The notes under the pieces were generated by a model. That model ran no database searches. It worked only from the letters and a program-made list of their open reading frames with translations, and was not told the origin of the DNA. Below are positions 5,371 to 55,963 of a DNA stretch of 64,000 bases, piece by piece (position 1 is the stretch's first letter; each line of letters begins with the position of its first letter). Origin of the DNA: Candidatus Spongiisociaceae bacterium (GTDB lineage: Bacteria > Actinomycetota > Acidimicrobiia > Spongiisociales > Spongiisociaceae). The position numbers and the translations under genes were made by a program. The stretch is from assembly GCA_965202675.1 (NCBI GenBank), contig OZ241842.1:2001962-2065961 (forward strand), in the 5' to 3' direction.

Positions 5371-5407
5371 AGGCCGGCAGCGCAGCAAAAAACGGAGGAC
5401 GCCCGGA

Positions 5408-5974: not shown

Positions 5975-6276
5975 TCCTCACCCAGTTCCTGGTGCTGGGG
6001 GCGGTGCTGTTCTCCCTGGGCGTCTACGGCCTGCTTTCCCGCCGCAACGCGGTGGCCGTCCTGTTGGCGGTGGAGCTGATGCTGGCCGCGGTCAACATCA
6101 ACCTGGTGGCCTTCGAGGCGTTCTGGAACACCGCCGCCGCCCACGGCCAGATCTTCGCCATCTTCGTCATCACCATCGCCGCCGCCGAGGTGGGCATCGG
6201 CCTGGCCATCATCCTGCTGGTGTTCCGCAACCGGGCGTCGGGCAACGTGGACGAGCTGGACCTGATGAAATGGTGA
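5971..6276 (+). CDS. nuoK: NADH-quinone oxidoreductase subunit K
   Basis: GTG at residue 90 of ORF 5704-6276 overlaps the nuoJ stop (GTGTGA). VILTQFLVLGAVLFSLGVYGLLSRRNAV...LMLAAVNINLVAF is the ND4L signature. Confidence 0.85.
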   Translation: MILTQFLVLGAVLFSLGVYGLLSRRNAVAVLLAVELMLAAVNINLVAFEAFWNTAAAHGQIFAIFVITIAAAEVGIGLAIILLVFRNRASGNVDELDLMKW

Positions 6277-6280
6277 CGCC

Positions 6281-11796: not shown

Positions 11797-14700
11797 GTGC
11801 GGGTGCTCGACGCCGATAACCTCGAAGGCTGGCTCGAATCGAACTATGTCGTCCATGTTCGGGTATCCGAGCAGCTCGGCCGCCGCCCTTTGGAAGCGGA
11901 GTCGTTGGACAGGTGGTGGCCTCGGTGGGCGGACCAGACGGATCCGGTTTTGCCGCCGGCCCTGCTGTTGGCCGGCCGTCGGGCCGAGGCGGAGAAACTT
12001 TGCGCCGCGTTGACCGGGCCCCCGAAGGTCACAGGGGTTCGGGCCGCCTCGCGAGAAGAGGCCTTAGCTTTCGGGGCCGTTGCCCTGAGCACGGTCAAGG
12101 ACGACGTTTCTGCTTCGCCGGCGGCAGTGGTCGTCAAGTCTCTTGCGGTGTGGGATCGGTGTGCGGCGAGTCCCGGCCCGGCCATTCTGATCCCCCCGCG
12201 GGTCGAGGGCATCGACCTGCCGGCCGCGGTCCGGCAGGGTCATCCGGTTCTGATTCCTATGGGAGCAGGTGATGTCGACGGGGGAGGCGAAACGATCCTG
12301 CTTCCCCGGATCGGTCGGTCGGAGGCGCGGGAAGCACTGGAGGCGGCCGGAGCGTCTTCGGACAAGGCGGACGGATACGCGGTCGCGGCCCGCCGGAGCC
12401 TGCTGTCCCTGCGCCGAAGGATTTCCCTGCATCCCGCGACGGCCAGACCTGTGTGGGCGCAAGGCGGGGAAGCCGAGCTGTTGGCGGCCCTCGTATTGGT
12501 CGGGGCGTGGGAACAGAACAACGACTATGACCGCGCCGCAGTGGAGCGGATCGCTGATTGCGGCATCGAGGCGGTGGAGCGCCGGCTGCAGCGCTGGGAG
12601 AACACCGATGATCCTCCCTTCCGACGTTCGGGCGGCGCTTGGCGGTTGTCGTCTCCGGAGGATGCATGGCCGCTCCTTCGCAGCATGATTACCCGGGATT
12701 GCCTGAGGCGGTGGCGCGAGGCAGCGCTCGGAGTGCTGGGCGCTTCCGGTTCGGCGATCGAGCCGCCCGGGGGCCGTTTCTTCGCCCCCTTCCCAGGGGC
12801 GGCGCGGAAATGGTCTGCCGATCTGCGGAGAGGGTTGGCGCAGGGGGCGGTTTTCCTGGCGGCCTTCGATTTGCCGCGGCCCTTGGACGGTCTCAGAGGT
12901 TCCGAACACGCCGAGCGGATGGTGATGGAACTGTTGGATCAGGCAGGCGCCGACTCCGCCGGCGTGTTATGGAGGTCCTTGGCCGATGTACTGCCCTTGC
13001 TGGCAGAGGCGGCGCCGGACATCTTCCTCCGAGCTGTACATCGAGACGCGGCGGGCGGCGCCCCTTTGTTGGCCGGAATGTTCACCGACGCCTGCGGGTT
13101 CACAGGGTCCCCGCATACCGGCCTGCTCTGGGCTTTGGAGGCCTTGTGCTGGTCGGATAGATACCTGCCCTCTGCCCTGGACGCCCTGTTGCGGTTGGCC
13201 GAAATCGATCCGGGAGGCCGGACGGCCAACCGACCCCTGGACAGCGCGCGCCGGGTGCTCCTGCCTTGGCTGCACCAGACAAGCGCCTCGATCGAGCGCC
13301 GTATGGACGTGCTCGACGGTGTTGTGGAGCGTCATGAAAAAAAGGGATGGGAGCTGTTGCTGAGCCTGGTTGCTCTGCGGGGCAGTCATACGCACAATAT
13401 CAACAGACCGCGATTCAGAGATTGGATGACCGAGACGACGGGAATCTCCGGAGAAGAATCACGGCGGGCGGCAGAAGCGATTACTATCCGAGCGCTCAAA
13501 AAGGCTGGCGCCAATCCCTATCTTTGGGCGCAGCTGATCGAACACATACCCCTTCTCTGGGTTGGGCAGAGAGAACAGGTCATCGATGCTCTCGAAAGCT
13601 CAGGCATAGAGGCGCTCGACCATGGTGATCGCTTCGTCATTTGGAAGTCCCTGAACAAGTTGGTCGGGAACCGTCCGGATCGGAAGGCTCTACAGGATAG
13701 ATTGTCTGCCGCCGGCCTTGAGCGTTTGGAGAATATAAGGACCAAAATACGCCCCGATACGCCAGAAGTTCTGATCCAAGAGCATCACGAGTTGTTCGAT
13801 TGGCATCCAGAACGTTCGGATAGAGAGCGTCAGGATGCCGTCACAAGCATCTATCGATCAGCGGGAGTCGGGGGGCTGAGAGACCTGTCGAAGGAAGCTG
13901 TTCGTCCGGAATTGATCGGTGCATCGTCAGCTGACGCCATTATTGATCTGAGGGCAGAAGAGATGCTTCCCCTGTTGAACCAGGAAGGGCCGGATCGCGC
14001 GTTCGTTATGGGATGGATTACTCGAAGGGCAGAGCTCGACGGGGCGGAATGGATAGAAAGAACTGCGGATTCATTGGCAGATTTGTCTCATTCTGGCCAG
14101 GCTCTCTTCTTTCTTTCCTTGAGTCCTGATACTACTGTATGGAAAATCTTGGACCAGATGCCGCCCTCTGTCCAAGATCAATATTGGGAACGGGTCCATT
14201 CTTTTTATATACCACGGAGCGATTTCCTGATGTACTTGGATAAGCTCTTGGAGCACAGGCAACCTTGGTCTGCTGTAGAGTTCCTGTTTAGTCAACTAAG
14301 CAAGGATAAGAAGGAGGGCGGCAGCCTGGTTACAAGCGAGATGGTAGAGCGAACTATACTCAAACTGATAGAATCTGATACGAAGGAGCACCCCAGCGAG
14401 ATGTCTGCCTTTTGTCTGGGTAATTTGCTGGACTATTTGGATAAGCACGAGCCCGACTCGAGCAACCTGGCTGATTTCGAGTTAGCTCTATTTTCGGTAC
14501 TGCGCCGGTCCGACCGCCCGCCGACCGCGATATACCGGCGGCTCCAAGCAGAGCCGGCCGAATTCGTCAAACTGGTCTGCGGCGTCCATCGACTGCCTGA
14601 CGAAGAACCGGAAAATGATTCATTCGAAAGTACTGCTCCGCTTGATAATGCCTGGTCCATTCTGAAGGAATGGCGGACTTTGCCGGGCACCGACCGCGAT

Positions 14701-15126
14701 ACAGGCGATATCGAGCACGAGCGGCTGCGGGCGTGGGTGTTGGAGGCGCGCCGGCTGTTGCGGGAACGGGGCCGGAGCAGCATCGGAGACCAGTACATAG
14801 GAGAGCTCCTGTCCGGCGCCCCATCGGGAAGAGATGGGATATGGCCGGCCGAGCCGGTGAGGGATCTGCTGGAAGAGCTTGCGAGCGAAGGCGTGGAGCA
14901 GGGTGTTCTGGTCGGCCGCTTGAACAGCAGGGGGGTTACCGTCCGTGATCCGTTCGAGGGCGGCGCCCAAGAAAGGGACTCGGCCGGCCGGTACAGCGAT
15001 TGGGCGCAGCAGGTCGAGGCCAAGCGGCCGAGCACCGGCCGGGTGCTGCGGCAGTTGGCCGACTCCTATGAACGGGAAGCCCGCCGGCATGACGAAGAGG
15101 CCGAAGCCCTATCCGACCAGGATTGA
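11797..15126 (+). CDS. Large (1109 aa) hypothetical alpha-helical protein in a partly low-GC insert; no domain recognised
   Basis: The long ORF has sensible codon usage. GC drops to about 55% over roughly 13.3-14.7 kb. The frame stays open upstream of the GTG at 11797. ATG 11573 opens a second frame (146 aa) that overlaps it, so a frameshifted N-terminus is possible. Confidence 0.55.
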   Translation: MRVLDADNLEGWLESNYVVHVRVSEQLGRRPLEAESLDRWWPRWADQTDPVLPPALLLAGRRAEAEKLCAALTGPPKVTGVRAASREEALAFGAVALSTVKDDVSASPAAVVVKSLAVWDRCAASPGPAILIPPRVEGIDLPAAVRQGHPVLIPMGAGDVDGGGETILLPRIGRSEAREALEAAGASSDKADGYAVAARRSLLSLRRRISLHPATARPVWAQGGEAELLAALVLVGAWEQNNDYDRAAVERIADCGIEAVERRLQRWENTDDPPFRRSGGAWRLSSPEDAWPLLRSMITRDCLRRWREAALGVLGASGSAIEPPGGRFFAPFPGAARKWSADLRRGLAQGAVFLAAFDLPRPLDGLRGSEHAERMVMELLDQAGADSAGVLWRSLADVLPLLAEAAPDIFLRAVHRDAAGGAPLLAGMFTDACGFTGSPHTGLLWALEALCWSDRYLPSALDALLRLAEIDPGGRTANRPLDSARRVLLPWLHQTSASIERRMDVLDGVVERHEKKGWELLLSLVALRGSHTHNINRPRFRDWMTETTGISGEESRRAAEAITIRALKKAGANPYLWAQLIEHIPLLWVGQREQVIDALESSGIEALDHGDRFVIWKSLNKLVGNRPDRKALQDRLSAAGLERLENIRTKIRPDTPEVLIQEHHELFDWHPERSDRERQDAVTSIYRSAGVGGLRDLSKEAVRPELIGASSADAIIDLRAEEMLPLLNQEGPDRAFVMGWITRRAELDGAEWIERTADSLADLSHSGQALFFLSLSPDTTVWKILDQMPPSVQDQYWERVHSFYIPRSDFLMYLDKLLEHRQPWSAVEFLFSQLSKDKKEGGSLVTSEMVERTILKLIESDTKEHPSEMSAFCLGNLLDYLDKHEPDSSNLADFELALFSVLRRSDRPPTAIYRRLQAEPAEFVKLVCGVHRLPDEEPENDSFESTAPLDNAWSILKEWRTLPGTDRDTGDIEHERLRAWVLEARRLLRERGRSSIGDQYIGELLSGAPSGRDGIWPAEPVRDLLEELASEGVEQGVLVGRLNSRGVTVRDPFEGGAQERDSAGRYSDWAQQVEAKRPSTGRVLRQLADSYEREARRHDEEAEALSDQD

Positions 15127-15160
15127 GCCGAGCTCTTGCGGTCGATGAGCGCGCCGGGGG

Positions 15161-16228
15161 TTATCCGGCTATGAAGGACTCCACGGCTTGGCGGGCCTCT
15201 TCGTCGCGCATCTGGCGCGGGGGAGACTTCATGAAGTAGGCGCTCGGCTCGTACAGCGGGCCTGCCAGCCCCCGGTCCAGGCCCAGCTTGGCGCAGCGGA
15301 GGGCGTCGATCACCACCCCGGCCGAGTTGGGGCTGTCCCAGACTTCCAGCTTTACCTCGGCGCTCATGGGGGTGTTGCCGAAACCGGTTCCCTCCAGGCG
15401 GATATGCGCCCACTTGCGGTCGGTCAGCCAGGGAACGTGGTCCGAGGGCCCCACGTGGATGTCCTCCACCGGCATATGGGTTTCCAGCTGGCTGGTCACG
15501 GCCGTGGTCTTGGACTCCTTCTTCGACTCCAGGCGGCTGCGTTCCAGCATGTTCAGGAAGTCGGTGTTGCCGCCGAAGTTGAGCTGGTAGGTGCGGTCCA
15601 CCTCGACGCCTCGGTCCTGGAAGAGGTTCACCAGGCTGCGATGCAGGATGGTGGCGCCCACCTGCGATTTGATGTCGTCGCCCACGATGGGCAACCCCGC
15701 CGCCCGGAACCGCTCGGCCCATTTCTCGTTGCGGGCGATGAACACGGGAATGCAGTTTACGAAAGCGCACCCGGCTTCCAGCGCCTGCTCCGCGTAGTAC
15801 TCGGTGGCCTGCTGCGACCCGACCGGCAGGTAGGAGATCACCACGTCCACCCCGGCCTTTCGCAGCTCCTCGGCTACGTCGACCTCCTCCTCCAGGGACT
15901 CCTCCACCAGGTCGGCCACATAGGAACCGATCCCGTCCAGGGTGGGGCCCCGCTTCACGGTGACGTCCAAATGGGGGACCTCGGCGAACTCGATGGTGTT
16001 GTTTTCGCCGGACTTGAGGGCCTTGGAGAGGTCTTGGCCCACCTTGGCTGCGTCTACGTCGAAGGCCGCCGCGAACTCGATGTCCCCGATGTGGTAGCCG
16101 CCCAGCTCGGGATGCATCAGTCCGGGGATGGTCTGGCCGGGATCGGCGTCCCGGTAGAACTCCACTCCCTGCACCAGGGCGGAGGCGCAGTTCCCCGCCC
16201 CCACAATCGCCGCCCTTATCTTGCTCAC
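15161..16228 (-). CDS. ino1: myo-inositol-1-phosphate synthase (inositol-3-phosphate synthase)
   Basis: The protein is near-collinear with actinobacterial Ino1, for example [17 protein letters not shown]...NNTIEF...GPTLDGIG...SYLPVGS...IKSQVGATI...[22 protein letters not shown]...[17 protein letters not shown]. It starts at GTG with a GGAGGAGG RBS. Confidence 0.9.
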
Positions 16229-27361: not shown

Positions 27362-28291
27362 TCAGAAGGCGACCGCGCCCAGGCCCTTGAGAGCCAGGCG
27401 TTCCCTGGTCTCGGCCGGGTCGGCCGGCTCGCGGGACAGCTCCCGCAGGATGCGCACGATCTTGGCCACCTGCTCGGCGTTGGACTCGGCCAGCTTGCCC
27501 TTCCGCAGGTAGATGCCGTCCTCCAAGCCGACCCGCACGTTGCCGCCCATGACGGCCCCGGCGGTGACGATGTCGAACTGATGGCGGCCCCCGCCCAGGA
27601 TCGACCACTCCAGGTCATGGCCGAACAGGCGGTTGGCGGCCGTCTTCATCGCCGCTACGTTCTCGATGTCCGGCCCGATGCCGCCGAAGGTGCCCATCAC
27701 GAACTGCATGAAGATCGGGGGCTTGACCAGGCCCCGGTCGGCGAAGTAAGCCAGGGTGTAGAGGTGGCCGACGTCGTAGGCCTCGAACTCGAAGCGGCAG
27801 CCGGTCTTGTCGGCCAGCACGGTGAGCATGTATTCGATGTCGCCGAAGGTGTTGACGAACGGCTCCCACTTGGTGCTCTCCAGGAAGGGCTCCTCCCAGT
27901 CGTACTTCCAGCGGCCCTCGTAGCGGGGGATCATCTGGAAAAGGCCGTAGTTCATGGTGCCCAGGTTGCAGGTGGCCAGCTCGGGTTTCAGTATCTCGAT
28001 GACCCGCAGGCGCTCTTCGATGGTCTGGCCGGTGGCCCCTCCGGTGGTGATCGAGATGACCGCGTCGCACCCTTCCTTGATCCCGGCGCAGTACTCCCGG
28101 AAAATACCGGGGTCCGACACCGGGCGCCCGTCCACGGGGTCCCGGGCGTGGATGTGGATGACGCTGGCCCCCTCGCGGGCGGCGTCGACCGACTGGGTTA
28201 CATGCTCATCGACGGTGACCGGGATGTCGCTGTTCATGGTGGGGGTGTGCGAAGCCCCCGTTACCGCACACGTAACGATCACACCGCTCAT
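27362..28291 (-). CDS. Beta-keto acid cleavage enzyme (BKACE/DUF849; 3-dehydrocarnitine cleavage enzyme-like)
   Basis: Kce/BKACE family signatures are present (VIVTCAVTGA...IHIHARDP...GCRFEFEAYDVGHLY...GGNVRVGLED). It lies immediately upstream of lcdH on the same strand. Confidence 0.85.
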   Translation of the reverse strand: MSGVIVTCAVTGASHTPTMNSDIPVTVDEHVTQSVDAAREGASVIHIHARDPVDGRPVSDPGIFREYCAGIKEGCDAVISITTGGATGQTIEERLRVIEILKPELATCNLGTMNYGLFQMIPRYEGRWKYDWEEPFLESTKWEPFVNTFGDIEYMLTVLADKTGCRFEFEAYDVGHLYTLAYFADRGLVKPPIFMQFVMGTFGGIGPDIENVAAMKTAANRLFGHDLEWSILGGGRHQFDIVTAGAVMGGNVRVGLEDGIYLRKGKLAESNAEQVAKIVRILRELSREPADPAETRERLALKGLGAVAF

Positions 28292-28378
28292 CTGCCCCTC
28301 CTTGTCGAGACCGGCTGCCAGGATAATCGTACTGCCGTTCCGCCCGCCGCGCCGCCGTACCCCTGTCGGCCCCGGAGG

Positions 28379-28945
28379 TCAGAGGTCCAGGCTCTCGAAC
28401 TTGCTGCGGTGCCTGTTCGGCAAGCCGTCGACCACGGCTTTGGCCGCGGCTATGAGCTCCTGAGCGGCTTCCAACTCGGAACGCGTGCTGTCCAACGCCT
28501 GACGCGACTCGGACAGTTCACCGTCGATCCGGGTCTGGATGCCGTTCACCTGCTCGCGGATGGTTTCCTGCCCGCTCGCCAGCTCGCCCAGCTTGTTGTC
28601 CTGCGTCTCCGATTGTTCGGCCAGCCTGCCGATTTTGTCCTTGGCGGTGTCCACCCCGGTGCGGATAGCAGTCAACTCGGCTCCGGTCACCAGATCCTCT
28701 GCACGCTGCAACGATTCCATGGTCTTTCCTATCGCCGACCGCAACAGGTCGCAGAGCTCCGCCATCTTGGTCGAGGTTTCCCGCAGGCTGCTGGATGCAT
28801 CGGATACAGCCGTCGAAGCCTGCTCCTGTCTGCTTGCGGCACCGGCCATCCCTTTGAGCCGCTCCTGCAACTCCTTCAGGGCATCGGTAGCCTCTTCGAA
28901 GCGGCGCTTGACCGCCTCGAACTCAACTGTATTATCTGATGCCAT
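28379..28945 (-). CDS. 188-aa coiled-coil protein of unknown function (low-GC island, translationally coupled to the helicase gene)
   Basis: Heptad-rich, Q/E/A-rich sequence with no TM segments. It starts 2 nt after the helicase stop. GC is about 52%. Confidence 0.5.
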   Translation of the reverse strand: MASDNTVEFEAVKRRFEEATDALKELQERLKGMAGAASRQEQASTAVSDASSSLRETSTKMAELCDLLRSAIGKTMESLQRAEDLVTGAELTAIRTGVDTAKDKIGRLAEQSETQDNKLGELASGQETIREQVNGIQTRIDGELSESRQALDSTRSELEAAQELIAAAKAVVDGLPNRHRSKFESLDL

Positions 28946-30395
28946 GCTTACTCACCTCCGTAGGTTTCCAGTATAGTGATGGCGAAGTCTCGGGCAAATT
29001 CAACACCTTCCGCTAGGGAGAACACAGTGAGTGGCCAGTTATGCTCACTGTATGTCCACATTTCCTCATCGGTCACAGCAGGAGGCGCTTCCGAATAGTG
29101 AGCTACTCCGAATAAACCGGCCGCCCATTTGGTTTCCCATCCTAAGAAATCAATCATCAAAGAGACCGCTTCGCTGATGACATCCTGAGGAACTTGATAC
29201 AAGACTCGCGCCGACTGCAGGGACTCCTTTAGCCCGTTTTCGAACTCACGAGAGTTGCCGTCTGGAATCATGGCCTCGGTTATTGCTCGGGTAGCTAGTA
29301 ACCATGGATAATCGGGGTAAGAACCAAGCAATCGGCCAGCCGCGCCTCGCCACTCGCGTGCGGTGGTCTCGGTTTCTATTATGTTCCATTCTATTATCCA
29401 TTCAAGGAAACGAAGATACGATTCCTGCACTAATCGCAATAATACTTGGGTTGCGAATCCCTCCTGTAGATAATCCAATATTTGTCGCCGCATTTCCATG
29501 TTAGGATCGCTATTTTCGGCGGCGGAGTGTGTAGCCAACCACATTTCTCTCATCGACCGGCGGCGCGCTGTCTCGATTGTACGATATACAAACCTTATCA
29601 ATTCCTGTCCACATCTTTTGATAGATGACATCAGGTCACCCGGATGCCCTATTCTGTTCCTTATCGCTGTTATTTGTCCAGGTTGACTTCGTTCAATAAA
29701 GGCTTCCAAACTCTTAGTAACTGTTTCCATGCTTACACTGCGAACTGTGACTTCGAAGGTTTGTGATCCGCGCTCCTTTAGATAATCTTCTACTACTCCT
29801 AGAACGGCCAGTCTGTGAAGGGCCCGTTCACGAGCATCCTCGCCAGCTCTCGTTTGTCTATCTCTAAAAGGCAGGCTGATCTCTTGTCGTTCTGTCCTCG
29901 GGTTCAATTCGTATGCAACTCTCATGAGGACAGATATCTCATCTTCCATACCAGCGAAGGTATTAAGGTGAAACCATAGGGCAGTAGTAACATCATCTTT
30001 GGCTCTATTACTAATCTCTTCAATCCGTTGTCGTATGTCCTCCAGAGGAGTATCTTCCGACAAAAGATTCTGATTCCGATCCTTGTCGAATTCGCTAAGG
30101 ATCAGCATGCATTCTGCTCGATCTCCGTCGCGTCCTGCTCTGCCTACTTCCTGATAGTAAGCCTCTATGGATCTTGGAAACAGGTAGTGAATACTCCACC
30201 TAATGTTAGGTTTATCTATCCCCATGCCAAAAGCACTGGTGCACACTAGGGCTAATATTTCATTGTTCATGAAGCGATTAACACTATCGTCCTTTATTAT
30301 CTCGAATTCATGGTGGGAGATGGTTCTTGGATTGCTACCCGCGTACACACCTACGCTAGGACAGATTATCGCAACGGCATCTTTAGCATTAATTA

Positions 30396-31209
30396 GGGCG
30401 TGTTAACACTATTTCGTTTTGATATGGTATCATGCGGGGATGGAGATTACAGAAGCTCAGTACGAGCGTATCAAGTCGTATTTACCGACGCAGCGCGGTA
30501 ATGTCCGCGTGTCGAATCTGGATGTGCTCAACGCTTTTTTGTATGTGTTGGAGCACGGATGTAAGTGGCGGGGGTTGCCTGACCGGTTTGGTAATTGGCA
30601 TACCATCTACACGCGGATGAACCGCTGGTCGAAGAATGGCGTGCTGGACAGGGTGTTTAGGGGTTTGCAGGATGAGGGGATCATCCGGATGAATCTGGAG
30701 GTTGTTTCTTTGGACAGCACGATCGTCAGGGTTCATCCCGATGGGATGGGCGCTCTGAAAAAAAGGGGCCCCAGGCGGTCGGCCGGTCCCGGGGGGGTTG
30801 GACGACCAAGATTCATATGGTTGCCGCGGATGCTCGAACGGCGGTGATGTTTTCTCTTTCTGCGGGTCAGGATCATGACGCTGCGCATGGGCGGAGGCTG
30901 TTGGAGCGGATCGGCGTGCAACAGGATCCGTTGTTCCTGGTGATGGACCGGGCGTATGAGGGGGACGAGACGCGGCAGTTGGCTTTGGATCTGGGGTATA
31001 CGCCGGTGGTTCCTCCTACAGTCCGGCGGCGGAACCCTTGGGTCTATGACCAGGAGGTTTACAAGCGGCGCAACGAGGTCGAGCGGTTGTTCCGACGGCT
31101 GAAGGAGTATCGTCGTGTCTTCTCCCGTTACGATAAACTCGACGTGGTTTACCTGGGGTTCATCACCTTTGCGCTGATAACAGAAACCCTACGTAGTGTT
31201 AACAGGCCC
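30396..31209 (+). mobile_element. IS5-family (IS427/IS1031-group) insertion sequence, 814 bp, with imperfect terminal inverted repeats and a TA target duplication
   Basis: IRL is GGGCGTGTTAACACTAT and IRR is ...TAGTGTTAACAGGCCC. TA flanks both ends. GC is about 50%. It encodes an orfA-orfB transposase. Confidence 0.8.
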
Positions 31210-31212
31210 TAG
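30440..31212 (+). CDS. IS5-family transposase (orfA-orfB, programmed -1 frameshift at A7 run ~30758-30764)
   Basis: OrfA reads MEITEAQYERIKSYLP...VSNLDVLNAFLYVLEHGCKWRGLP...WHTIYTRMNRWSKNGVLD. OrfB (30817-31212) reads ...DHDAAHGRRLLE...LVMDRAYEGDETRQLALDLGYTPVVPP...NEVERLFRRLKEYRRV, the DDE_Tnp_1 C-terminus. The two ORFs overlap around the GAAAAAAAG slippery site. Confidence 0.75.
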
Positions 31213-33715
31213 TCCTGGTAATCCTCCAGGGCGTTGATTAACAGTAGGAACGAATACCAAGCCGGAGAAGGTCTGCTCTCCTCTATTAGGCATAAAATAC
31301 CTTGCTTGATTGACATCAAACAGGGCGGGCAAGCGCCTCAAGCAACCTTGGAGAGTAACTGGGTGATCAGGGGAAGTACATCTTACATGATAGTTGAGTT
31401 CTGGTCGATCAAAGGATTCTGGTTGTACGATAGAATTATCATTGTGTTCCATAATACCCAACTGAAATAGTACATCGCTTAGTACTGCTCGAGATGCTGT
31501 TCCAGTTAAGGCAAGCAGTGGGGGAGGTTGTCCGCTTTGATCTTTAGATAATTTACGAATAATGTTGCCCAAATTGAGGTATGCATATCTGAAGTCATGC
31601 CCCCATTCAGAAACGCAATGTGCCTCGTCTACTACGACTAGGTTGACAAGAGTAGCGTTTGCCAACCTAGCTAAAGCCTTTCTAAATTTCTTTGTCTGAA
31701 TACGCTCGGGAGCGACAAACACATAGTAAGGCTCGGCATTTGCTATATGTTCCAAAACTACATCTTGTTCTCTAGTACGACTTGTGATTTCTTGTACACG
31801 GTCGATGCCGTGGCTTCGTAGGCCTTTAACTTGATCATTAATCAAGGCTACCAACGGGTCGATCACTAAGGTTCGTCCGGGCAGGCATAACCCGGCTAGC
31901 TGATAGATCAAGCTCTTGCCCGCCCCCGTCGGGAGAAGCACGGCACAATCCCTCATGGACATGACCTCGACTATGGCTTCATACTGACCATCACGAAAAC
32001 CCTCTTTGGCAAACACAGCGCGGAGTAATACCCTCAGAGGGTCCCTGCCCTCGTCTCCTTCGATATGAACGGTTGCTCGATTGTTGTCGCCTTCTAGGCG
32101 ATCGGACATCAGAACGGGAACACCTGTGGATCGGATAACCACTGTTGGTGTGCCATCGCGATCAGGGAGTGGCTGGCACGAAGTACGATCACACTGCAAC
32201 AGGATACGGGCGCGAGGGTTAGACACCGATTCTTCGGAGGCATCTTGGCGCTCGTATCGGCCTTCCGGGGTGCGGTGGAAGAGTACTCTATCTTCACTGT
32301 CCTCGAATAACACTCGTCCTGGCACAACGGAGCGGGCATCCCACAGGCAACAGAGGGCGTAAAGAACTTCCAGATATGGTACTATCAGTTCGATGGCCAT
32401 ATGCGTAGGATCTTCGACTTCTACTATCCAGGAATCCCCGCTTAGGAATCCGCGGCGGATGGCTTCGCATAGTCCCAAAACCAAGCGATGAACCTGGATA
32501 GAACCCCAGACCAATAATTTATCTTCATCCGAGGGATTTGTGGCTTGACTGACTGTCGCCTCTATAGCGTTGGTAACGGCTTCAAGTTGAGAGCCGTGTC
32601 CCATTCTGATTTCACTTGTAGACACGCGGATAGTTTCTATGCCGATATTTCTAAGCAATTGGTCCCGCTCTTGGTCAGTTAGTTGTTGAGTTTCGTGTTG
32701 CGTACCGTCTATTTCAATTACAAATGGACAGCTACCCGGTGGTGCCCAGAGAAAATCGCAACGGCGGTTCCCGCCTGCTCCATGGCCTGCTGCCTGCAGG
32801 AGGCCGTCTAATGAAGCTTGAGGTATCAGCCAACGAGCAACTCGTGGATGGTGCTCTGCCATCCATTCCATCAGTAGCCGTTCCTCGTCCGATTCAGCCA
32901 GAGATGGTTCGATTTCAACGTGGTAGCCACCGGGTATCACGGTGAGGTCGCGTAAGCTCACTGAATAAGAATCGTGCAGATTGAATGACACATCTCCCGG
33001 TTGCGAGCTAGGTCGGATACGGTCACCTAGACCGACAGACTCAATCAGTATCCGCTCAGAGTCGGGGTGTAGGGGCGGTGTCAATCCTCGGCGGAGAAGT
33101 TTGCCCATTACGTCCAGCACTCTTTGAGTGTTTCTATCAGACTCAAGTTCGTGGAGAGGGGATGTGCTTGCTATCCAGCAGTTGGAGAGAGAGTCCATGT
33201 CCTCAACCTTGACAGACCTAAGAGATGCTCCTACAGTGGCATATTCGACCTGCCAGCCAGCATTTTCGAAGCCAAAGGTACCATCAGACCAGTGAACACG
33301 TTGTTTTCTGAGAACATCCTGCCCGAATACCTTTGCTGGGTTCGGATGATTGGTGATCATCGTGTCGGGCTGAGGTGTATCCGGAGGGTTTATTATTGGC
33401 GGGTTAGCCCTTTTTTCCTCGTTGCTATTGAAAGTTGTGGTTCCTCGGCAACTGGGGAATTGCAGGCATCCCCAGAAACGGTTTCCGGACCTTGCCCCCT
33501 GCTTCGCGGTGCGAAGGGTCATATCACTCCCACATCTTGGGCATCTGGGGCGGTTTCCACTCGTGCTGTTCCTTCGCCACGTTGACCCCCCGCGCTTGCG
33601 GTGGTCTGTCTCGGAGTCTAACCCCGACGAGGGGTCGCGGTTTCTGGACACACAGGCGTTTGGTGATCGACAAAACTGTCAGGCGGCGATCCCGATGAAG
33701 GGTTATGCACCTCGC

Positions 33716-34840
33716 TTAGGCGTTCCGTTCGGCGAAGGGGAGGGGTTCGGTTACCGCGGTAAGCCGCAGGCCCTCCACCGACGCCTCCAGCGCGGTGCCG
33801 GGGGCGGCCGCCGTCCGCTCGACGAGGGCGAAACCGAGGTTGGCGTCGAAGCGGGGGGAATAGGCCGCCGATGTGAGCCGTCCGACCTGTCGGCCTTCCA
33901 GGAAAAGGGGGTAGTGGACCGGGTTGCCCAGGATGGGCTCGCCTCCCATCCGGACCCCGGTCAGCAAACGGGCCGGCCCCTGCTCGGCGATCTTCATCAG
34001 CGCCGCCCGCCCGGCGAAGTCCTCCCCGTCGTAGAAATCGACCAGGCGGCCGAAGCCCAGCTCGAAGGGGTTGACCGTATCGTCCATGTCGGTTCCGTAG
34101 GAGAGGATGCCCCCTTCGATGCGGCGGATATGGTTGGGGGCGGCGGCCCGGACGCCGTAACGGCGACCTGCCTCGAACAGCAGGTCCCACAGCCACGCAC
34201 CCCGGGTGCGGTCGGTCAGGAACACCTCGTAGCCGTACTCGCCCGACCAGCCGGTCCGGGAAACCAGCAGGTTCACTCCGTCCAGGTTCGTCCAGGCGCA
34301 CCGGTAATAGGGCAGATCGGCCACCTCGCCGCCGAACACGTCCGCGACCAGCGGCTTCGACTTGGGACCCTGGATCTGGAGGGGCGAGACATCCGGCTCC
34401 CTGACCGCCGCGTCCAGGCCCCTTTCGTAGGCGATGGCCTGCGCCCAGAGGAGAATGTCGCGGTCGGCCAAAGACAGCCAGAACCGGTCTTTCCCCACCC
34501 GCAGGAGCACCGCATCGTCGAGGATTCCCCCGGCGTGGCTGCAGATGAAGACGTAGCAGGCCCGGCACACTTCCAACCGGGAGGTGTCCCGCGTGCACAG
34601 GTACCGGGTGAGCCGCCCCGCGTCGGGGCCCTCGATCTCGACCTGGCGCTCACCCCCTACATCCCAGATCGTCACGTCCTCCACCAACGCCCGGTATTCA
34701 TCGAGCAGGCCGGAGTACCGGGCCGGCAGGATCATATGGTTGTAGATCGTTACCCCGGTCAGCCCGGCCCGGAGGGTCGCCTCGAAGTAGGGCGAAGGCC
34801 GCAGCCGCGGCGATCGGATCAGCGGCAGGTCATCGGTCAT
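33716..34840 (-). CDS. Aminomethyltransferase-family (GcvT-like) protein, probable THF-dependent demethylase
   Basis: GcvT fold motifs are present (IWDVGGERQVEIEGPDA...GYEVFL...). The start is taken at MTDDLP (residue 26 of ORF 33716-34915), 11 nt inside the upstream MFS stop. Confidence 0.7.
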   Translation of the reverse strand: MTDDLPLIRSPRLRPSPYFEATLRAGLTGVTIYNHMILPARYSGLLDEYRALVEDVTIWDVGGERQVEIEGPDAGRLTRYLCTRDTSRLEVCRACYVFICSHAGGILDDAVLLRVGKDRFWLSLADRDILLWAQAIAYERGLDAAVREPDVSPLQIQGPKSKPLVADVFGGEVADLPYYRCAWTNLDGVNLLVSRTGWSGEYGYEVFLTDRTRGAWLWDLLFEAGRRYGVRAAAPNHIRRIEGGILSYGTDMDDTVNPFELGFGRLVDFYDGEDFAGRAALMKIAEQGPARLLTGVRMGGEPILGNPVHYPLFLEGRQVGRLTSAAYSPRFDANLGFALVERTAAAPGTALEASVEGLRLTAVTEPLPFAERNA

Positions 34841-36353: not shown

Positions 36354-36914
36354 TCAGGCTGGCCGGGTTCCTTCGGGGCCGGCGGCGCCGCGATTGCGTT
36401 CCTGTATTCGGTACAGCTCAGGGAGGGCGGCCAGGTCCGGTTCCCGGCGGAGAGCCTGCTTTGCTTCGATGATGTCGTCGAGGTGCGCTATCAAGACGGC
36501 GGTTCCATATATACGGACAGTGCGGGCCTTGGGCAGGAGCGCATCGTAATCGGCCAGGTTGCCGGCCCGGGTCGGGGCGCCCGAAACGACATCGAGGTCG
36601 CCGTGGCGGGTGCGCCAGGCAGATACCTCAAAGGACGACAGGGACTGTCCGTCGATGGGGAAGTCGACGACGGCTCGGGAACCAGGGGTGTCTCCTTCCA
36701 CGCGCAACCGGGCGCCCATCGCGACGAGAGCGTCCGCAAGCCGGCCGAGGTTGCCGTCCTGCCATTGCGGGGTTATGTCGAAGCCTCTGGTTACGCGGTG
36801 AGAACCGTGGGCCGCGGCGGCGATGCCTCCTATGACTATGTAGACCACCTTGTGCTCGGCGAGGGTGTCGACCATTTCCCTGGTCGAGAGAGCGGGCGCG
36901 TCAGGGTCGCTCAT
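36354..36914 (-). CDS. Nucleotidyltransferase-fold-like protein (possible toxin/partner of XRE regulator)
   Basis: The start is taken at MSDPDA (residue 104 of ORF 36354-37223), overlapping the XRE stop as ATGA. The IVIGGIAAAAHGSHRVTRGFDI hG[GS]...D motif is suggestive but unconfirmed. Confidence 0.45.
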   Translation of the reverse strand: MSDPDAPALSTREMVDTLAEHKVVYIVIGGIAAAAHGSHRVTRGFDITPQWQDGNLGRLADALVAMGARLRVEGDTPGSRAVVDFPIDGQSLSSFEVSAWRTRHGDLDVVSGAPTRAGNLADYDALLPKARTVRIYGTAVLIAHLDDIIEAKQALRREPDLAALPELYRIQERNRGAAGPEGTRPA

Positions 36915-37261
36915 GGGGAGAGGCCCGAACGGAGCTGGGACACCAGCGATGCGTAGGCGTCGTTGGCGGATAAGCGTTCTTCCACTTTCTGTTCCAGCGC
37001 TGTGGAGGAGAGCAGCTCGTGATCGGGCCGGTCTGCAAGCTTCAGCTCCAGGTGCATGCCGCAGGCTTCGACGATCCGGATGAGGGTTCCGATCTCCGGC
37101 AGGACCAGGGCCCGTTCGTACCGGCTGATCTCGGCCTGCGATGTCCCGGCCCGCTCGGCCAGCTCGGCCTGGGTGTACCCCGCTCTCCGACGCGCCTCGC
37201 GGATAATCGACCACGCCGGCCATCGGGCCGGATCGATCCGTCGTTTGGGCGCCGCAACCAT
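36911..37261 (-). CDS. XRE-family helix-turn-helix transcriptional regulator (antitoxin-like)
   Basis: AGYTQAELAERAGTSQAEISRYERALVLPEIGTLIRIVEACG is a classic Cro/C1 HTH. It is 116 aa. Confidence 0.7.
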   Translation of the reverse strand: MVAAPKRRIDPARWPAWSIIREARRRAGYTQAELAERAGTSQAEISRYERALVLPEIGTLIRIVEACGMHLELKLADRPDHELLSSTALEQKVEERLSANDAYASLVSQLRSGLSP

Positions 37262-37370
37262 CCTGTTATGTGTTATAGCATATATTCAGGAGTCCTCGGA
37301 CCATTACGTTGGGCCCGAGCGTCCAAGCCGACCTCAGGGAAGTACATCCAAAGTTGTGCGGCGCTCGAAA

Positions 37371-37456
37371 TTCTAGGGAAAATACCTATAATCCAGCGCA
37401 AAGTTGGGATTTTTGCTAAGAATTTGCTAGTTTCTAGGGAAAATACCTGTAATTTG
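37371..37456. promoter_or_regulatory. Two 22-25-bp direct repeats (TTCTAGGGAAAATACCT[A/G]TAAT) each embedding a -10-like hexamer, in the divergent XRE/ATPase intergenic region
   Basis: Copies sit at about 37371-37395 (with a perfect TATAAT) and 37432-37456 (TGTAAT), spaced about 61 bp apart in an AT-rich region. Confidence 0.4.
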
Positions 37457-37497
37457 GACAATCCGGGGTTCTGGGGTCGGAATCGGGAGGAGATGGG

Positions 37498-39546
37498 ATG
37501 GCGGGGCGGCCGATGTTCAGGCGGCGGGTGCTCGATAGGGCGCTCGAGGCCATGCGCAGCTTTCCGGTGGTGATGCTGCAGGGGCCGAGGATGGTGGGCA
37601 AGACCACCCTGCTCGAGGAGATGGCCGGGCGTTTGGGCGGGGCTGTCGTCGATCTCGACCACCCGGGCGCCAGGTCGAAGGTCAGGGCCGACCCCGACTC
37701 GGCGGTCACCGGACCCGGCCCTGGGTTCATCGACGAATATCAGAAGATGCCGGAGTTGCTCAACTACATAAAGGCCCGGCTCAACGTCGATGGGTCCCCC
37801 GGCCGGTTTGTGTTAACCGGATCGTCCCGTCACGAGGCTCTGCCCAGGGGCGTCCAGGCGTTGACCGGCCGGTTGCTCAGGCTGCCTGTTCTGCCCCTGT
37901 CGCAGACCGAGATAGCCGGGGCGGGGGGCAACTTCATCGAAAATATGTTCGACAGCCCGGAGGCGTTCGCTTCCTCCGGCGGCGGCGGCCGCGAAGACTA
38001 TGCGGCGAGGGTCGTTGCAGGGGGGTTCCCCATGCAGGTCAACAGCCGCGATGACCGAGAGCGCCGGGGGATGATTGAGCAGTACCTCCGGCTGTCGATC
38101 GAGGTGGACGCCCGCGAGCTGCTGCGGGTGCACCGGCCCGAGGCCCTTTCCTGCTTTCTGCAGCGGCTGGCCGCCCAGACCGGGCAGATCCTCAACATGG
38201 CCAAGGCGGGCGGTGATGTGGGCGTCAAGGCCGGCGCCGCCGAGAACTACACCAGGCTCTTGGAGGCTGTCTTCATCCTGCGGCGGCTGCCGGCGTGGCG
38301 GAAGACCGCCCGCGGTCCGGTCCGCCGCCCCAAGATATACGTCCTCGATTCGGGGGTGGCCGCCCACCTGCTCGGTTTCACGGCGGAGAGGCTGCGCAGC
38401 AACGCCCCTTTTGCCGCCGAGCAGTTCGGTCATCTGCTGGAGACCTTCGCGGTGGGCGAGATTTGGAAGGCGGCCTCGTGGCTGGAAGACGCCCCCATGT
38501 ACAAGGTCGGGTATTGGAAGCACCGGAGCGGCGCCGAGGTCGATCTGGTGATCGAACGTCCGGACGACGGCGCGGTGATCGCCCTCGAGGTCAAGGCCGC
38601 CCAACAGGTCCGGCCCGATGACACCAAGGGGCTCCGCCTGCTGCGGGACGAGCTGGGGGAGCGCTTCAGGGCCGGCGCCGTGCTCTACACCGGTCGTGAA
38701 ATATACCGCCTGCCCGACGGCCTGTACGCGATGCCCATCGAAGCGGTGTGGCAAGGGGAGGCCGTCGAACAGCCCGGCCCCGACCGGCGCCGGCATGGAG
38801 GAGGGAAGGTTCGCGCGCCGGGCGGGCTTCGGGCTGCGGGCGAGGCCGCCGCCGAGGATGCATTGCCGCCGCCGGTCCGCGCCGCCGCCGACCGGATGCT
38901 GGAGATGCTGAATCCGGGGGAGTCGGCTTACTGGGAGATAGCGGTCACGCCGTCAGAGCCGGTGCACTTCGACGACTTCTATTCCTCGGCGGGCGTTCGC
39001 GGCGCCCTGATGGAACTGCAGACCCGTTATCCGGGGCGGCGGGCCTTCGGCCTCGGCCATCAAGGGGCGGTGCAGACCATCGGCGAGTGCGCAGCCCTGC
39101 TTGACGCCGGCCGGGGGATCCTGGTGCATCCGGCGGGAACTGTGGCGGCGGCGGCCTTGGGCATCGATGCAGAGTTCCGGGATTTCCTGGGATGGTCGGA
39201 CGACCTTGAAGACAGGCATCTCATCGCCAGGCACGAAGTACTGAACCAGTGGCCGCTGGAGATCGCCCTCTTCATCCATGAGCAGCTCCGGCCCTGCCTT
39301 CCGGCCGGGGAGTTGATCTTCTGGTCGGCGGGCAGGCGGCTTCTGACCGGACGGCCCGCCCTCCTGCTGGGGGATGAGCAAGGATCGCCGCCCTCGCTGA
39401 CACCCGCGGTGGTCGACAACCCCTACCGCAAGAGAATCCTATCCACGGGCGATCCCGAGGTCGACGCCTACCACCTGAAGGCGTCCTTCTACGAATGGTT
39501 CGGCATTCCCGCCGCCGACCTACCGGAAGCCGGCAGGGCCGTATAG
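37498..39546 (+). CDS. AAA_14/DUF4143-family ATPase with ~280-aa C-terminal extension of unknown function
   Basis: It has a Walker A motif (LQGPRMVGKTTL), a DUF4143-like middle region and a strong GGGAGGAG RBS. The 682-aa length compares with about 400 aa for typical family members. Confidence 0.7.
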   Translation: MAGRPMFRRRVLDRALEAMRSFPVVMLQGPRMVGKTTLLEEMAGRLGGAVVDLDHPGARSKVRADPDSAVTGPGPGFIDEYQKMPELLNYIKARLNVDGSPGRFVLTGSSRHEALPRGVQALTGRLLRLPVLPLSQTEIAGAGGNFIENMFDSPEAFASSGGGGREDYAARVVAGGFPMQVNSRDDRERRGMIEQYLRLSIEVDARELLRVHRPEALSCFLQRLAAQTGQILNMAKAGGDVGVKAGAAENYTRLLEAVFILRRLPAWRKTARGPVRRPKIYVLDSGVAAHLLGFTAERLRSNAPFAAEQFGHLLETFAVGEIWKAASWLEDAPMYKVGYWKHRSGAEVDLVIERPDDGAVIALEVKAAQQVRPDDTKGLRLLRDELGERFRAGAVLYTGREIYRLPDGLYAMPIEAVWQGEAVEQPGPDRRRHGGGKVRAPGGLRAAGEAAAEDALPPPVRAAADRMLEMLNPGESAYWEIAVTPSEPVHFDDFYSSAGVRGALMELQTRYPGRRAFGLGHQGAVQTIGECAALLDAGRGILVHPAGTVAAAALGIDAEFRDFLGWSDDLEDRHLIARHEVLNQWPLEIALFIHEQLRPCLPAGELIFWSAGRRLLTGRPALLLGDEQGSPPSLTPAVVDNPYRKRILSTGDPEVDAYHLKASFYEWFGIPAADLPEAGRAV

Positions 39547-39581
39547 CCTTCTCGCCTCTGCCCGGTCGGGCGGGGGGCGGA

Positions 39582-40966
39582 TCACGCGGAGGCGGGTCCT
39601 TCCCGCAGCCGGGCGGCGAGATCTTCAGGGGCGGTGAAGACCACTTGCCGGCCTTCCTTGTAGTCGTTGAGCCATCCATGGTTCTGTAGGGTGAGTAGAT
39701 CAGTGCGCGCTGTTTGTCGGGATACGTTGTGGCTGCGGGCATGGCTCTGGTATGTGTAGCGGGTCCCCGGTTTTCTCAGGGCGTGGCCGAGCAACGCCCT
39801 TTGCCGGTGGTTCAAACCCGGTAGTTCCCCCGCCGCCTGCTCCGCGGCGCGGGTTCGTTCAATGGTCTTGTCAACGTAATTTGCCAATTCCTCGAATGCC
39901 CGTCCCATGACATCGAGCTGGTGGAGGAGGAAGTACGTCAGGTCATTGTCGTCGGTCTCGGAATGGATGAAGGCGCGTCCGTATTGTGCGGGTGCACCCA
40001 GGATGATCTTCGAGATAGAGACGAATTCGACCAGCCAGTACCCGGCCCGCAGGGCGTCCAGTAGAACAGGGCGCGGGCGGTGCGTCCGTTGCCGTCGACG
40101 AACGGATGCACGTAGGCCAGCCAGAAGTGCAGCATGATCGCCTTGACCAAAGGGTGGGTGAACGGTCCGTGCTCGTCGTTGGCGAACTCGCAGAGCTGAT
40201 CGATGCGCTCCGGGATCTCCTCCGCCGGCGGCGGCTTGTGCACCAGATCTTCATCTCGGTCGTAAACGGCCACCCTGGCCTCGCCCGGTTGTTGAAACCG
40301 CCCGGCGTCCGCCGGTTCTTCCAGGGTTCCATCGGTGAGCTCTGCATGCAGCTCCATCAGCAGGGCCGGGGTCAGATCCTGCGTTGCGGCCTCCCCGATC
40401 CGGCGAATGGCCCGGTAGTTGTTGATGATCATCCGCTCCGATCGGTCGCGGGGTTGCCGTCCTGCCCTCAGCATTTCCTTCGCCACTCGGCGGGTAGTAG
40501 CGGCGCCTTCGAGCAGTGAAGAGGAGATGGCTTCTTCGATCATCCCCCGCACCATGTACCGGTCGCGGGTGGTTCGGTCCACGACCGCGGCGGGCGCGGC
40601 CAGCCGGCCGGCGGCGCGCAGGTCCAGGTGGTGCAACCGCTCCAGAAGCGGGTCGACGAGGCTGTAGGTGAACGGTTCGCCGCGCGTGTCCATCAGATCG
40701 GTCGGTCGGGCGGACAGATGCCGCGTCAGGCGCATTCCCATCCACCATTGCTCCCGGGTGAGCCCCTCGGGGGGTTTCCGCCTGCGTACCTCGTCCCAGT
40801 GCAGGTAGCGGCCGTTTACGGCGGCGCCGATTTCGACCAGCCTGCTCAATATTTGGGGGCCGACGCCCTCCAGCGCAGTGGACATCGGCGGCGGTCGTGC
40901 TATTCGGATGGTCATTTCTGCTCCGAGTGGTGGGGGCTTCCTGCCGGGGACAGCAAGTGCAGGCAA
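39582..40966 (-). pseudogene. Fic-family protein gene (DUF4172-Fic-wHTH architecture) with a frameshift just after the Fic motif
   Basis: ORF 39938-40966 carries HPFVDGNGRTARALFYW and then runs out of frame. The authentic continuation (LLDALRAGYWLVEF...) and the C-terminal wHTH (ORF 39582-39908) lie in the adjacent frame, so a 1-nt indel is implied. Confidence 0.7.
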
Positions 40967-40969
40967 GTG

Positions 40970-41005
40970 TATAATTTAGTGCTAAGAAGTGCTAATTTAG
41001 CACTT
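40970..41005. promoter_or_regulatory. TATAAT hexamer plus 9-1-9 palindrome AAGTGCTAA-T-TTAGCACTT (with an extra AGTGCTAA half-site) upstream of fic
   Basis: A perfect inverted repeat lies in the 70-bp gap between the fic start and the etfA stop. Confidence 0.4.
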
Positions 41006-54691: not shown

Positions 54692-54837
54692 CTGTGCTTC
54701 CCATGGACGTGGTTGACAGTTTTGGCGGCGGGGTGGCAGGCCGCCCCCGGACGGTCGACCTTCGACCCCGGTCCCCTTGATCACGGGAGGAGCCCTCCGG
54801 GCCGTTGTAGGAGCATATCGTCAGGTGTACGCAACAC

Positions 54838-55608
54838 GTGGAAGGGGAGAGCGGGTCCCTTGCGGAACCGGGCTCTCCCCGGGTAGAATTGTTTGCTCTG
54901 CAACAGTATAGCAGGAAAATGACCGCATTGGAAGCACCGCATCTGGTCATCGGCCGACTGCGCGACTACTTCGCGCGCAGAACCAACTGGCAACGCCGAC
55001 TCTGGAATCCAGGAACCGTCACTGTACTACAGGAGACTTTGGAAGCGGTTCAGCTACTTGAGGGTGAACAAGTCGCTCTAGATGGGTAGCTCCAAGGTTG
55101 CCATGACTAGAAAGGGTATATAATCATAGTTTAGATTGATTACAAAGCATATGATAACCAGGATGATGACGAATGAGCCGCTTAGCTCGGCTCCTCGGCG
55201 ATTGGGCTGTGCCTGTAATCGGCGTGTTTCCGCGGTTGGTCGGCGGAAACAAAACCCTTATCCCTTGGAACTACCCATCTAGGGGCCGTTGAAGCCTTGG
55301 CGAGAACAGCGGAGCGGCGAGCTGGACCGGATTCTGGGATTGGTACTACGGCTAAACGAAAGGCTATCACCGAGACCCTCCGTAAGGTAAGCAAAAGCCA
55401 GATGGTCAGGTATCAGTTTGAGTATCTCCTCCGGGGGGTTGGTGATGGTTACCTGCAACGTTGGTCGGAGAAACTGAGGGACCAGCCAGATAAGATCAAG
55501 ACCGAAGAGGCTTCACGATTAGTGGCGGGGCACCTACTCGGTCTAGGTTTCAGCCCCGATAAGCTCCATCGGTGGTCAACTTGGCTATATAGGCAAAGAC
55601 AGCCCTAA
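54838..55608 (+). pseudogene. Small ORF (~185 aa, unknown function) interrupted in frame by a MITE-like element
   Basis: ORF 54838-55089 stops at the TAG inside the left TIR. ORF 55297-55608 resumes in the same frame. Removing 55078-55278 rejoins them as ...EGEQVAL/GAVEALARTAE.... Confidence 0.45.
55078..55282. mobile_element. MITE-like 205-bp nonautonomous element with 20-bp terminal inverted repeats (CTAGATGGGTAG[C/T]TCCAAGG) and CTAG/TA target duplication
   Basis: The ends are near-perfect inverted repeats (1 mismatch). The interior is AT-rich and non-coding, and the insertion is in frame in the host ORF. Confidence 0.55.
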
Positions 55609-55963
55609 ACGCTAGCAGATCTATTCGAGGAAGCCGAAGCCTTGGCGCGTTCAAGGAAGGCCGAGTGGGTGGTGTTTATCCCGTTCCGAGCCCTTGGGCG
55701 GCATGGCCAAACAATGCCAGACGAGTGGCTTGACCTAGGATAGGCGAGCCGATGGTTGTTAGATCATGTTGGAAGTGTCAAAATACGGTCACTGATCTGG
55801 TTGCTCTTTATGGTATTGGCTGAAACCAACTCTCTCTTCATGCCTTCAAGTACGGGCAGATGCGGTTGCCAATGGGTGGGATGGCTCGTTGCCGAGGGTA
55901 GCCTTGCCCCCGCTGGTGGTTTCATCCTTGAGAAACCTTACGGTTTTAAGGTCCGGTCCCGGT

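Follow-up and report, generated by a model that had tools for sequence, protein, structure and literature searches.

Here, we examined a 64-kb stretch of DNA from Candidatus Spongiisociaceae bacterium (assembly GCA_965202675.1, contig OZ241842.1, positions 2,001,962-2,065,961), hereafter called the window, whose own coordinates are used throughout. Near its middle lies an islet of low G+C content with two adjacent genes, one for a giant helicase-nuclease, which is interrupted by an insertion sequence (IS), and one for a small coiled-coil partner. With moderate confidence, we read this pair as an undescribed two-gene helicase-nuclease defence or conflict module that has been inactivated in this genome. 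The open reading frames (ORFs) and gene fragments on which the following paragraphs rely are these:

28379-28945, minus strand: partner ORF, 188 codons (188 aa), beginning 2 nt past the helicase stop.
28948-30348, minus strand: ORF of the C-terminal fragment, 466 codons.
28948-30395, minus strand: helicase-nuclease 3' fragment, residues 814-1295 plus stop, 100% identical to P0089.
31189-33651, minus strand: ORF of the N-terminal fragment, 820 codons, with the frame open back to a GTG at 33651.
31212-33564, minus strand: helicase-nuclease 5' fragment, residues 30-814 of a 1295-codon ORF.

Deletion of positions 30396-31211, that is, of the IS and one copy of its TA duplication, yields a single uninterrupted ORF of 1295 codons with the junction ...GGLPGLINAKDAV.... 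The initial annotation of this DNA had predicted both the restored giant ORF and the junction, and the prediction is corroborated by a protein from a separate assembly (P0089, 1266 aa), which is 100% identical to our reconstruction across 1265 residues and whose gene, free of the IS, lies at the same locus (L088). The reconstructed helicase gene is therefore not hypothetical but corresponds to a real intact allele. The low-GC segment described earlier within a high-GC locus is equally evident from composition: per 500-nt segment, the G+C content is 0.44-0.58 at about 28.7-33.5 kb as against 0.64-0.78 outside, with averages of 51% for the islet without the IS, 56% for the IS, about 50% for the helicase gene and 68-71% for the flanks. 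Since the G+C content at third codon positions (GC3) is 0.46 in the helicase gene as compared with 0.79 in the partner gene and 0.79-0.93 in the flanking genes, the low G+C content of the islet is mainly a property of the helicase gene. This contrast between a partner gene of host-like composition and the adjacent helicase gene could reflect an independent origin of the helicase allele, selection favouring AT-richness, or silencing. The GC3 of the helicase gene also differs between relatives, reaching 0.62 in one of them (L002). We found neither direct nor inverted repeats flanking the islet, nor any convincing sign of a promoter or terminator at its borders.

The restored protein has the four-part architecture that had been proposed from the sequence of the window, as supported by Pfam, by NCBIfam and by the intact allele. 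Numbered on the 1295-codon ORF, its domains are the following:

33427-33543, minus strand: C4 zinc ribbon of the topoisomerase-I type (CPRC...C...C), residues 37-75, PF01396.
32548-32901, minus strand: DUF559/Vsr-like PD-(D/E)xK nuclease domain, residues 251-368, recognized from DUF559 and conserved residues.
31213-32046, minus strand: RecQ-type core, RecA1 lobe and first part of RecA2, residues 536-813, matched by Pfam DEAD, TIGR00614 and 1oyw.
30064-30393, minus strand: second half of RecA2 with motifs IV-VI (...AFGMGIDKPNIR..., QEVGRAGRDG), Pfam Helicase_C at residues 849-904.
28951-30063, minus strand: C-terminal domain, the signature of the family, residues 925-1295, a winged helix followed by alpha-helical (TPR-like) repeats.

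The zinc ribbon matches Pfam Zn_ribbon_Top1 (PF01396) with 30.7 bits, slightly under the 32-bit cut-off, is recorded on many homologues, and has strands modelled at a predicted local distance difference test score (pLDDT) of 84-96. In the nuclease domain, Pfam DUF559 matches residues 310-363 above its cut-off, and a profile built from 81 homologues matches the DUF559 structure 3hrl with an E-value of 2e-9. Residues D299, E313, D315, H319, D326 and D330 vary little or not at all among these homologues; with its DUF559 signature, its Vsr-like fold and its conserved acidic and histidine residues, the domain falls within the VSR/DUF559/DUF2726 clade. The motor segment at residues 536-813 holds motif 0, motif I (PTGAGKS), motif II (DEAH) and motif III (TGTAS), and the score of 264.2 bits against the recQ_fam model TIGR00614, whose cut-off is 219.8, assigns it to the RecQ family. 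Walker A, DEAH and motifs III and VI are also invariant or nearly so across the 81 homologues. Such conservation of catalytic residues suggests that both the nuclease and the ATPase activities are probably real.

The protein is not the housekeeping RecQ that the initial annotation had allowed for as an alternative. Escherichia coli RecQ (1oyw) is matched with an E-value of 5e-84, but only through its two RecA lobes, the match stopping near RecQ residue 358; the equivalog models TIGR01389 and NF008279 score 268.9 and 221.4 where their cut-offs are 640.2 and 1015, respectively, and no Pfam match to the RecQ zinc-binding (PF16124), RQC (PF09382) or HRDC (PF00570) domains was found in the large protein. 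AlphaFold2 modelling from the family alignment gave a pLDDT of 91 for residues 925-1295 and of 86 for residues 1-540. The C-terminal 370 residues or so, previously thought to lack any recognisable fold, thus belong to a recognisable fold class, a winged helix with helical repeats, but we found no solved relative of this domain. When the N-terminal model was compared by Foldseek with the PDB, only I-Bth0305I was significant, and two sub-domains (residues of about 111-250 and 369-535) could be assigned to no known domain.

The second gene is a constant companion of the first. Partner homologues adjoin the helicase stop in 9/9 loci from genome and assembly look-ups and in the metagenome loci that retain the 3' end, so that the earlier suggestion of a conserved pair holds at every locus examined. 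The same gene order was seen in 39 metagenome loci retrieved with a pattern specific for the C-terminal domain, and in almost every one of them the two genes are spaced by -61 to +33 nt. Partner sizes, locus by locus, are 188, 188, 188, 225, 165, 231, 168, 193, 188, 179 and 192 aa. No Pfam family matches this small ORF; a hidden Markov model of the partner nevertheless recovers the partners of six loci (L001-L006). Coiled-coil length varies, as illustrated by a 225-aa partner (L004, 9480-10157) with a triplicated internal repeat (...DDATLATTG...). Matches of the partner to SMC, Rad50, JetC, ZorA, LmuB and tape-measure proteins were rejected as weak matches of coiled-coil composition.

In the clade of the window, the partner is a coiled coil of 188 aa without a membrane helix. 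It has a conserved motif near its N-terminus, VEFE.VKRRF, and ends in a conserved basic motif, written LP.RHR.KF or LP.R.RRKF. Outside this clade, 33 of the 37 complete partners end in a membrane-helix-like segment preceded by a coiled coil, as compared with 8 of 129 neighbouring ORFs. From this difference, the ancestral partner can be read as a tail-anchored coiled-coil protein whose anchor has been lost in the clade of the window. The coiled-coil partner and its 2-nt spacing had already been recognized in the initial annotation; the ancestral membrane anchor had been overlooked.

Two lesions distinguish the copy in the window from the intact allele:

30396-31209, plus strand: IS5-family insertion sequence of 814 bp, with inverted repeats, a TA duplication and about 70% identity to annotated elements.
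30394-30395 (left copy) and 31210-31211 (right copy): TA target-site duplication, a single TA at the empty site in L088.
33562-33564, minus strand: start-codon lesion, with ACG in place of the ATG of the intact allele (L088:6001), GAAGGA lying upstream.

The IS has terminal inverted repeats of 16-18 nt (GGGCGTGTTAACACTA) and a TTAG-like target. Its two transposase ORFs, both on the plus strand, overlap (30419-30847 and 30817-31212, the second in the -1 frame), and a run of seven A residues at 30758-30764, between these ORFs, is probably a programmed frameshift site. The inverted repeats, the short TA-containing duplication and the two-frame transposase identify the element as a member of the IS5 family, and the empty site in L088 is clean. 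Overlapping ORFs, A7 run, inverted repeats and TA duplication are alike in the IS427-like group of this family. At the nucleotide level, the IS is about 70% identical to IS5-family transposase elements annotated in Burkholderia and Cupriavidus plasmids; no named relative closer than this was identified, and no second copy was found in the window.

The second lesion concerns the position at which translation would begin. Homologues begin 5-7 residues ahead of the first CxxC, and the intact allele has a Shine-Dalgarno sequence (GAAGGA) in front of codon 30; the true start is thus most likely codon 30 of the 1295-codon ORF, with a predicted product of 1266 aa. The protein of about 1300 aa proposed earlier stands as regards the repair of the IS, but its start has to be moved to codon 30, and the start-codon mutation had escaped notice. 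Apart from the IS, this change is the sole point difference from L088 across about 4.9 kb, and the partner gene is identical and undamaged. By its sequence, the copy in the window is a pseudogene, doubly inactivated by the ATG to ACG change and by the IS, with no other change in these 4.9 kb. The probability that one neutral substitution in a 3.8-kb gene would strike the start codon is about 0.1%, which hints that loss of the large protein may have been favoured or readily tolerated, as with costly or autotoxic genes.

Comparison with related genomes points to a history of the pair that differs from that of the surrounding chromosome. One feature marks the segment concerned:

28200-33879, no strand: exchanged tract with its borders, identical to L088 5686-10549 apart from the IS and the start codon (coordinates converted).

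Both genes lie within the tract of near-identity, whereas its flanks carry 6-20 single-nucleotide polymorphisms per kb (about 1%). Against another relative (L001), synonymous divergence (dS) is 0.51 for the helicase gene and 0.20 for the partner gene, as compared with 0.09-0.12 for the flanks, the helicase value being five times that of the flanks. The ratio of nonsynonymous to synonymous divergence (dN/dS) of the helicase gene is 0.16-0.25 (0.25 against L001), which argues for purifying selection rather than decay: the intact gene appears to be under purifying selection and its alleles to have diverged anciently. The same ratio led us to reject the idea that relaxed selection or the drift of a pseudogene lies behind the high divergence, since the increase is in dS. 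Within the protein, one homologue (P0005) is a mosaic, 78-87% identical in the N-terminal domains and 44-57% in RecA2 and the C-terminal domain. Family-wide, the last 100 residues or so (1191-1295) are the least conserved folded part, only the unstructured N-terminal leader and the linker being lower. The mosaic and the variable C-terminus suggest domain-level recombination among close relatives. Taken with the identity of the L088 tract and the raised dS against L001, the mosaic indicates that the cassette has been swapped by recombination across conserved flanks while diversifying at its C-terminus, and on these comparisons its history is decoupled from that of the chromosome around it.

The family extends far beyond this clade. 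We counted it by searching a representative library of 1.84 billion proteins, grouped in 50%-identity clusters, by phmmer with the C-terminal domain alone, and obtained 776, 509 and 107 clusters at E-values of 1e-3, 1e-10 and 1e-30, respectively. Members of full length have 1100-1500 aa and carry this domain at their C-terminal end. A homology search gave 81 full-length clusters of 1100-1300 aa, the named ones being called only 'RecQ family ATP-dependent DNA helicase'. A contig search with the full alignment had three full-length family members among the matches listed (80 loci), which were dominated by ordinary RecQ genes, a proportion that is no measure of rarity. One metagenomic protein of 1286 aa (P0083) has a RecQ core fused to topoisomerase domains (PF01131, PF01751).

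L001, L002, L003 and L088 share one slot for the pair, flanked by GcvT and BKACE genes; the neighbours of the pair in the window are BKACE, GcvT, MFS and acyl-CoA enzymes. Other lineages house it elsewhere. One locus (L004) has it beside a ribosomal-protein operon, with PIN, N6/N4 methyltransferase and GmrSD genes nearby. In two Poriferisodalis-like genomes (L005 and L087), the pair lies together with PIN/MazE inside the suf Fe-S cluster locus, with the NifU/acyl-CoA dehydrogenase part on one side and the SufBD part on the other. It adjoins integrase, AAA_15/21 and PLD genes on the contig encoding P0081, and a tyrosine recombinase/integrase in L007. A locus of Dehalococcoidia (L006) has a full-length Druantia DruE (PADLOC, 1556 bits; 1061-6478) directly upstream. 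Among the metagenome loci, the pair has GmrSD next to it in L122 and L110, NB-ARC in L110, and McrB/C-like genes in L104. By a qualitative tally, DruE, GmrSD, McrBC-like, NB-ARC, type I S subunits, PIN/MazE and AAA_15/21 recur in several independent loci. Of the proposal that the islet is a horizontally acquired accessory module, the accessory, exchanged status is supported by these varied contexts, by the defence-gene neighbours and by the decoupled history, but the module is not a one-off recent insertion, the same slot being occupied in at least four related genomes.

We infer a defence role, a DNA target and a role for the partner, the first of these from protein architecture and gene neighbourhood. 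No result of ours points to abortive infection in particular. Helicase-nuclease domain logic is shared by Hhe, Hna/Nhi-type, ZorD and DdmD-type effectors. This shared logic, the defence-type neighbours and the cassette-like behaviour in the population lead us to propose that the large protein would act as a translocating nuclease driven by ATP, which would load on foreign or aberrant DNA and cut it in the manner of other helicase-nuclease immune effectors. In the product of the first gene (about 1266 aa), DNA would be bound by the zinc ribbon and the winged helix, translocation in the 3'-5' direction would be the task of the RecQ motor, and cleavage that of the Vsr-type nuclease. The second gene would be translationally coupled to the first, its coiled-coil product being tail-anchored in most lineages and soluble in this clade. 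The partner may hold, position or license the large protein, probably via the variable C-terminal domain, and in most lineages it would do so at the membrane. On this reading, the cassette is exchanged among related strains by recombination, and here the start-codon mutation and the IS5-family insertion have switched it off.

Several points weigh against a defence module. The copy in the window is a pseudogene, and the full-length protein is not expressed here. RecQ and Vsr-type domains are classic repair domains, and UvrD/PcrA is the neighbour in L086. The support from the neighbourhood is qualitative rather than statistical, and many of the neighbouring genes serve ordinary metabolism. The fixed slot in the clade, with neither integrase nor repeats, is also compatible with lineage-specific repair. 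In addition, the defence comparison was made with PADLOC v2 (PADLOC-DB of 2023), NCBIfam and Pfam, and this PADLOC database predates newer catalogues.

Some of these points would also suit a helicase-nuclease for DNA repair or recombination that is particular to the lineage; it would be an accessory RecQ paralogue acting on damaged or stalled DNA, with the coiled coil as its scaffold. The purifying selection on the helicase gene, the slot shared by at least four related genomes, the repair-type character of all three recognisable modules (RecQ core, Vsr/DUF559 and Top1-type zinc ribbon) and the adjoining UvrD/PcrA in L086 would all fit such a role. We nevertheless regard it as unlikely: the protein scores far under the cut-offs of the housekeeping RecQ equivalogs (269 versus 640 and 221 versus 1015) and lacks RQC and HRDC, contexts vary among lineages and include defence, toxin-antitoxin and integrase neighbours, the history of the alleles is decoupled from that of the flanks, a membrane-anchored partner is the norm in the family, and two independent knock-outs were tolerated or selected here.

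A toxin-antitoxin-like addiction module akin to RqlH/RqlI (PsyrTA), with a genotoxic helicase-nuclease, a restraining partner and selfish persistence, is similarly doubtful. It would account for the tight coupling of the genes (2 nt here, -61 to +33 nt elsewhere) and for the finding that both lesions fall in the large gene, the partner gene being undamaged and identical to that of L088; RqlHI has a small partner that keeps a genotoxic RecQ-like helicase in check (PMC4670107), and PADLOC PsyrT matches the helicase core with 232 bits. However, the PRTase (phosphoribosyltransferase) domain, the toxic part of RqlH, is missing, as is a PsyrA/RqlI-like partner, and a tail-anchored coiled coil would be an unusual antitoxin. 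Moreover, this explanation overlaps with a defence role, since PsyrTA is itself listed as a defence system.

Finally, it is very unlikely that the pair is cargo or machinery of a mobile element, such as the replication or transfer helicase of an integrative element, despite the tyrosine recombinase/integrase that adjoins it in L007 and on the P0081 contig, the atypical composition, and a phage family of unknown function (phrog_33220, a 1558-position profile) that matches the helicase and winged-helix part with an E-value of 1.7e-64, because just two genes move together, the islet in the window is without integrase, flanking repeats or tRNA, most contexts are without mobility genes, and no relatives of the C-terminal domain were found in IMG/VR (2.9 million viral contigs).

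Returning to the defence module, it is tempting to go one step further and to suggest, tentatively, that the pair could represent a widespread new immune class, in which a tail-anchored coiled coil would tether or license a RecQ-motor/Vsr-nuclease at the cell envelope to destroy incoming DNA, with the variable C-terminus as the determinant of specificity or docking and a soluble partner in the actinobacterial clade of the window. If the pair does serve defence, several hundred clusters (at 50% identity) would be added to the helicase-nuclease immune effectors, and these would be the first such effectors with a RecQ-type motor and a Vsr-type nuclease; the tail-anchored coiled-coil partner would then hint that incoming DNA is surveyed close to the membrane. 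The locus also amounts to a natural experiment, with near-identical strains that carry intact or doubly inactivated alleles swapped across conserved flanks. A gene with a GC3 of 0.46 among flanks of 0.8-0.9, together with this pair of alleles, makes the cost, turnover and silencing of such a cassette testable.

Elsewhere in the window, a second accessory patch was noted at 36357-41000, where the G+C content dips to 0.58 at 37.0-37.7 kb. Its genes encode an XRE-type helix-turn-helix protein (36914-37261), an AAA_14/DUF4143 ATPase (37498-39543) and a Fic/DOC protein (39941-40966), and the first of them is overlapped by a 186-aa ORF that matches no family; L001 has a PLD-SNF2 helicase instead at the matching position. 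Further dips, to 0.61-0.64 in 2-kb bins, occur at 12000-16000 and at 54000-56000.

In the initial annotation, it was stated that the large protein fits no described defence family, and comparison with known systems leads us to the same view. PADLOC v2, NCBIfam and Pfam gave no specific model match to the pair, only generic helicase and nuclease domains; literature searches on RecQ, DUF559 and defence, and on RecQ-like proteins, transmembrane partners and phage defence, yielded no description of this architecture and led only to RqlHI/PsyrTA. The PADLOC matches to DpdF (295 bits) and PsyrT cover the helicase core only, and those of the partner are coiled-coil noise. The Dpd system is not a suitable home for the pair, the DpdF equivalog (NF041063) scoring 169.8 as against 550 and no dpd genes lying nearby. 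With housekeeping RecQ, the large protein has in common the two RecA lobes and motifs 0 and I-VI.

The resemblance to Zorya (ZorAB with ZorC/ZorD) and to other nuclease-helicase systems linked to the membrane is one of concept, a membrane component with a long coiled-coil tail being combined with a cytoplasmic helicase-nuclease effector. However, the Zorya effector is of the SNF2 type whereas that of the window is RecQ-type and part of a system of two genes only, no MotA/ExbB domain was found, and the partner matches the coiled-coil tail of ZorA at 15-16 bits, which is noise. PsyrTA/RqlHI is closer in layout, as a two-gene operon of a RecQ-family helicase and a small partner. In RqlH, a C-terminal PRTase domain is the toxic part (PMC4670107). 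In its place, the protein studied here has a DUF559 nuclease, a zinc ribbon and a winged-helix/helical-repeat domain, and Pfam detects no phosphoribosyltransferase domain in it. The partner has no PsyrA match in PADLOC and differs from PsyrA/RqlI in being a coiled coil that may or may not carry a membrane helix.

Hhe (NCBIfam NF042953), reportedly introduced by Gao et al. in 2020, is said to be a large polypeptide that joins a helicase to a Vsr/DUF559-clan endonuclease and to occur in defence islands. The likeness to the protein of the window lies in the union of a motor and a Vsr/DUF559-clan nuclease in a single polypeptide. In contrast, the motor of Hhe belongs to superfamily 1 (DUF4011) and that of the window protein is a RecQ-type motor of superfamily 2; NF042953 is not among the matches of the large protein, and Hhe is without an obligatory coiled-coil or membrane partner, a Top1-type zinc ribbon or the C-terminal domain found here. 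As the Hhe, DpdF and RecQ equivalogs all fail, the PRTase domain is absent and the architecture is undescribed in the literature, the pair appears to belong to no named family, and in kind it is best compared, with a putative function, to the helicase-nuclease conflict systems.

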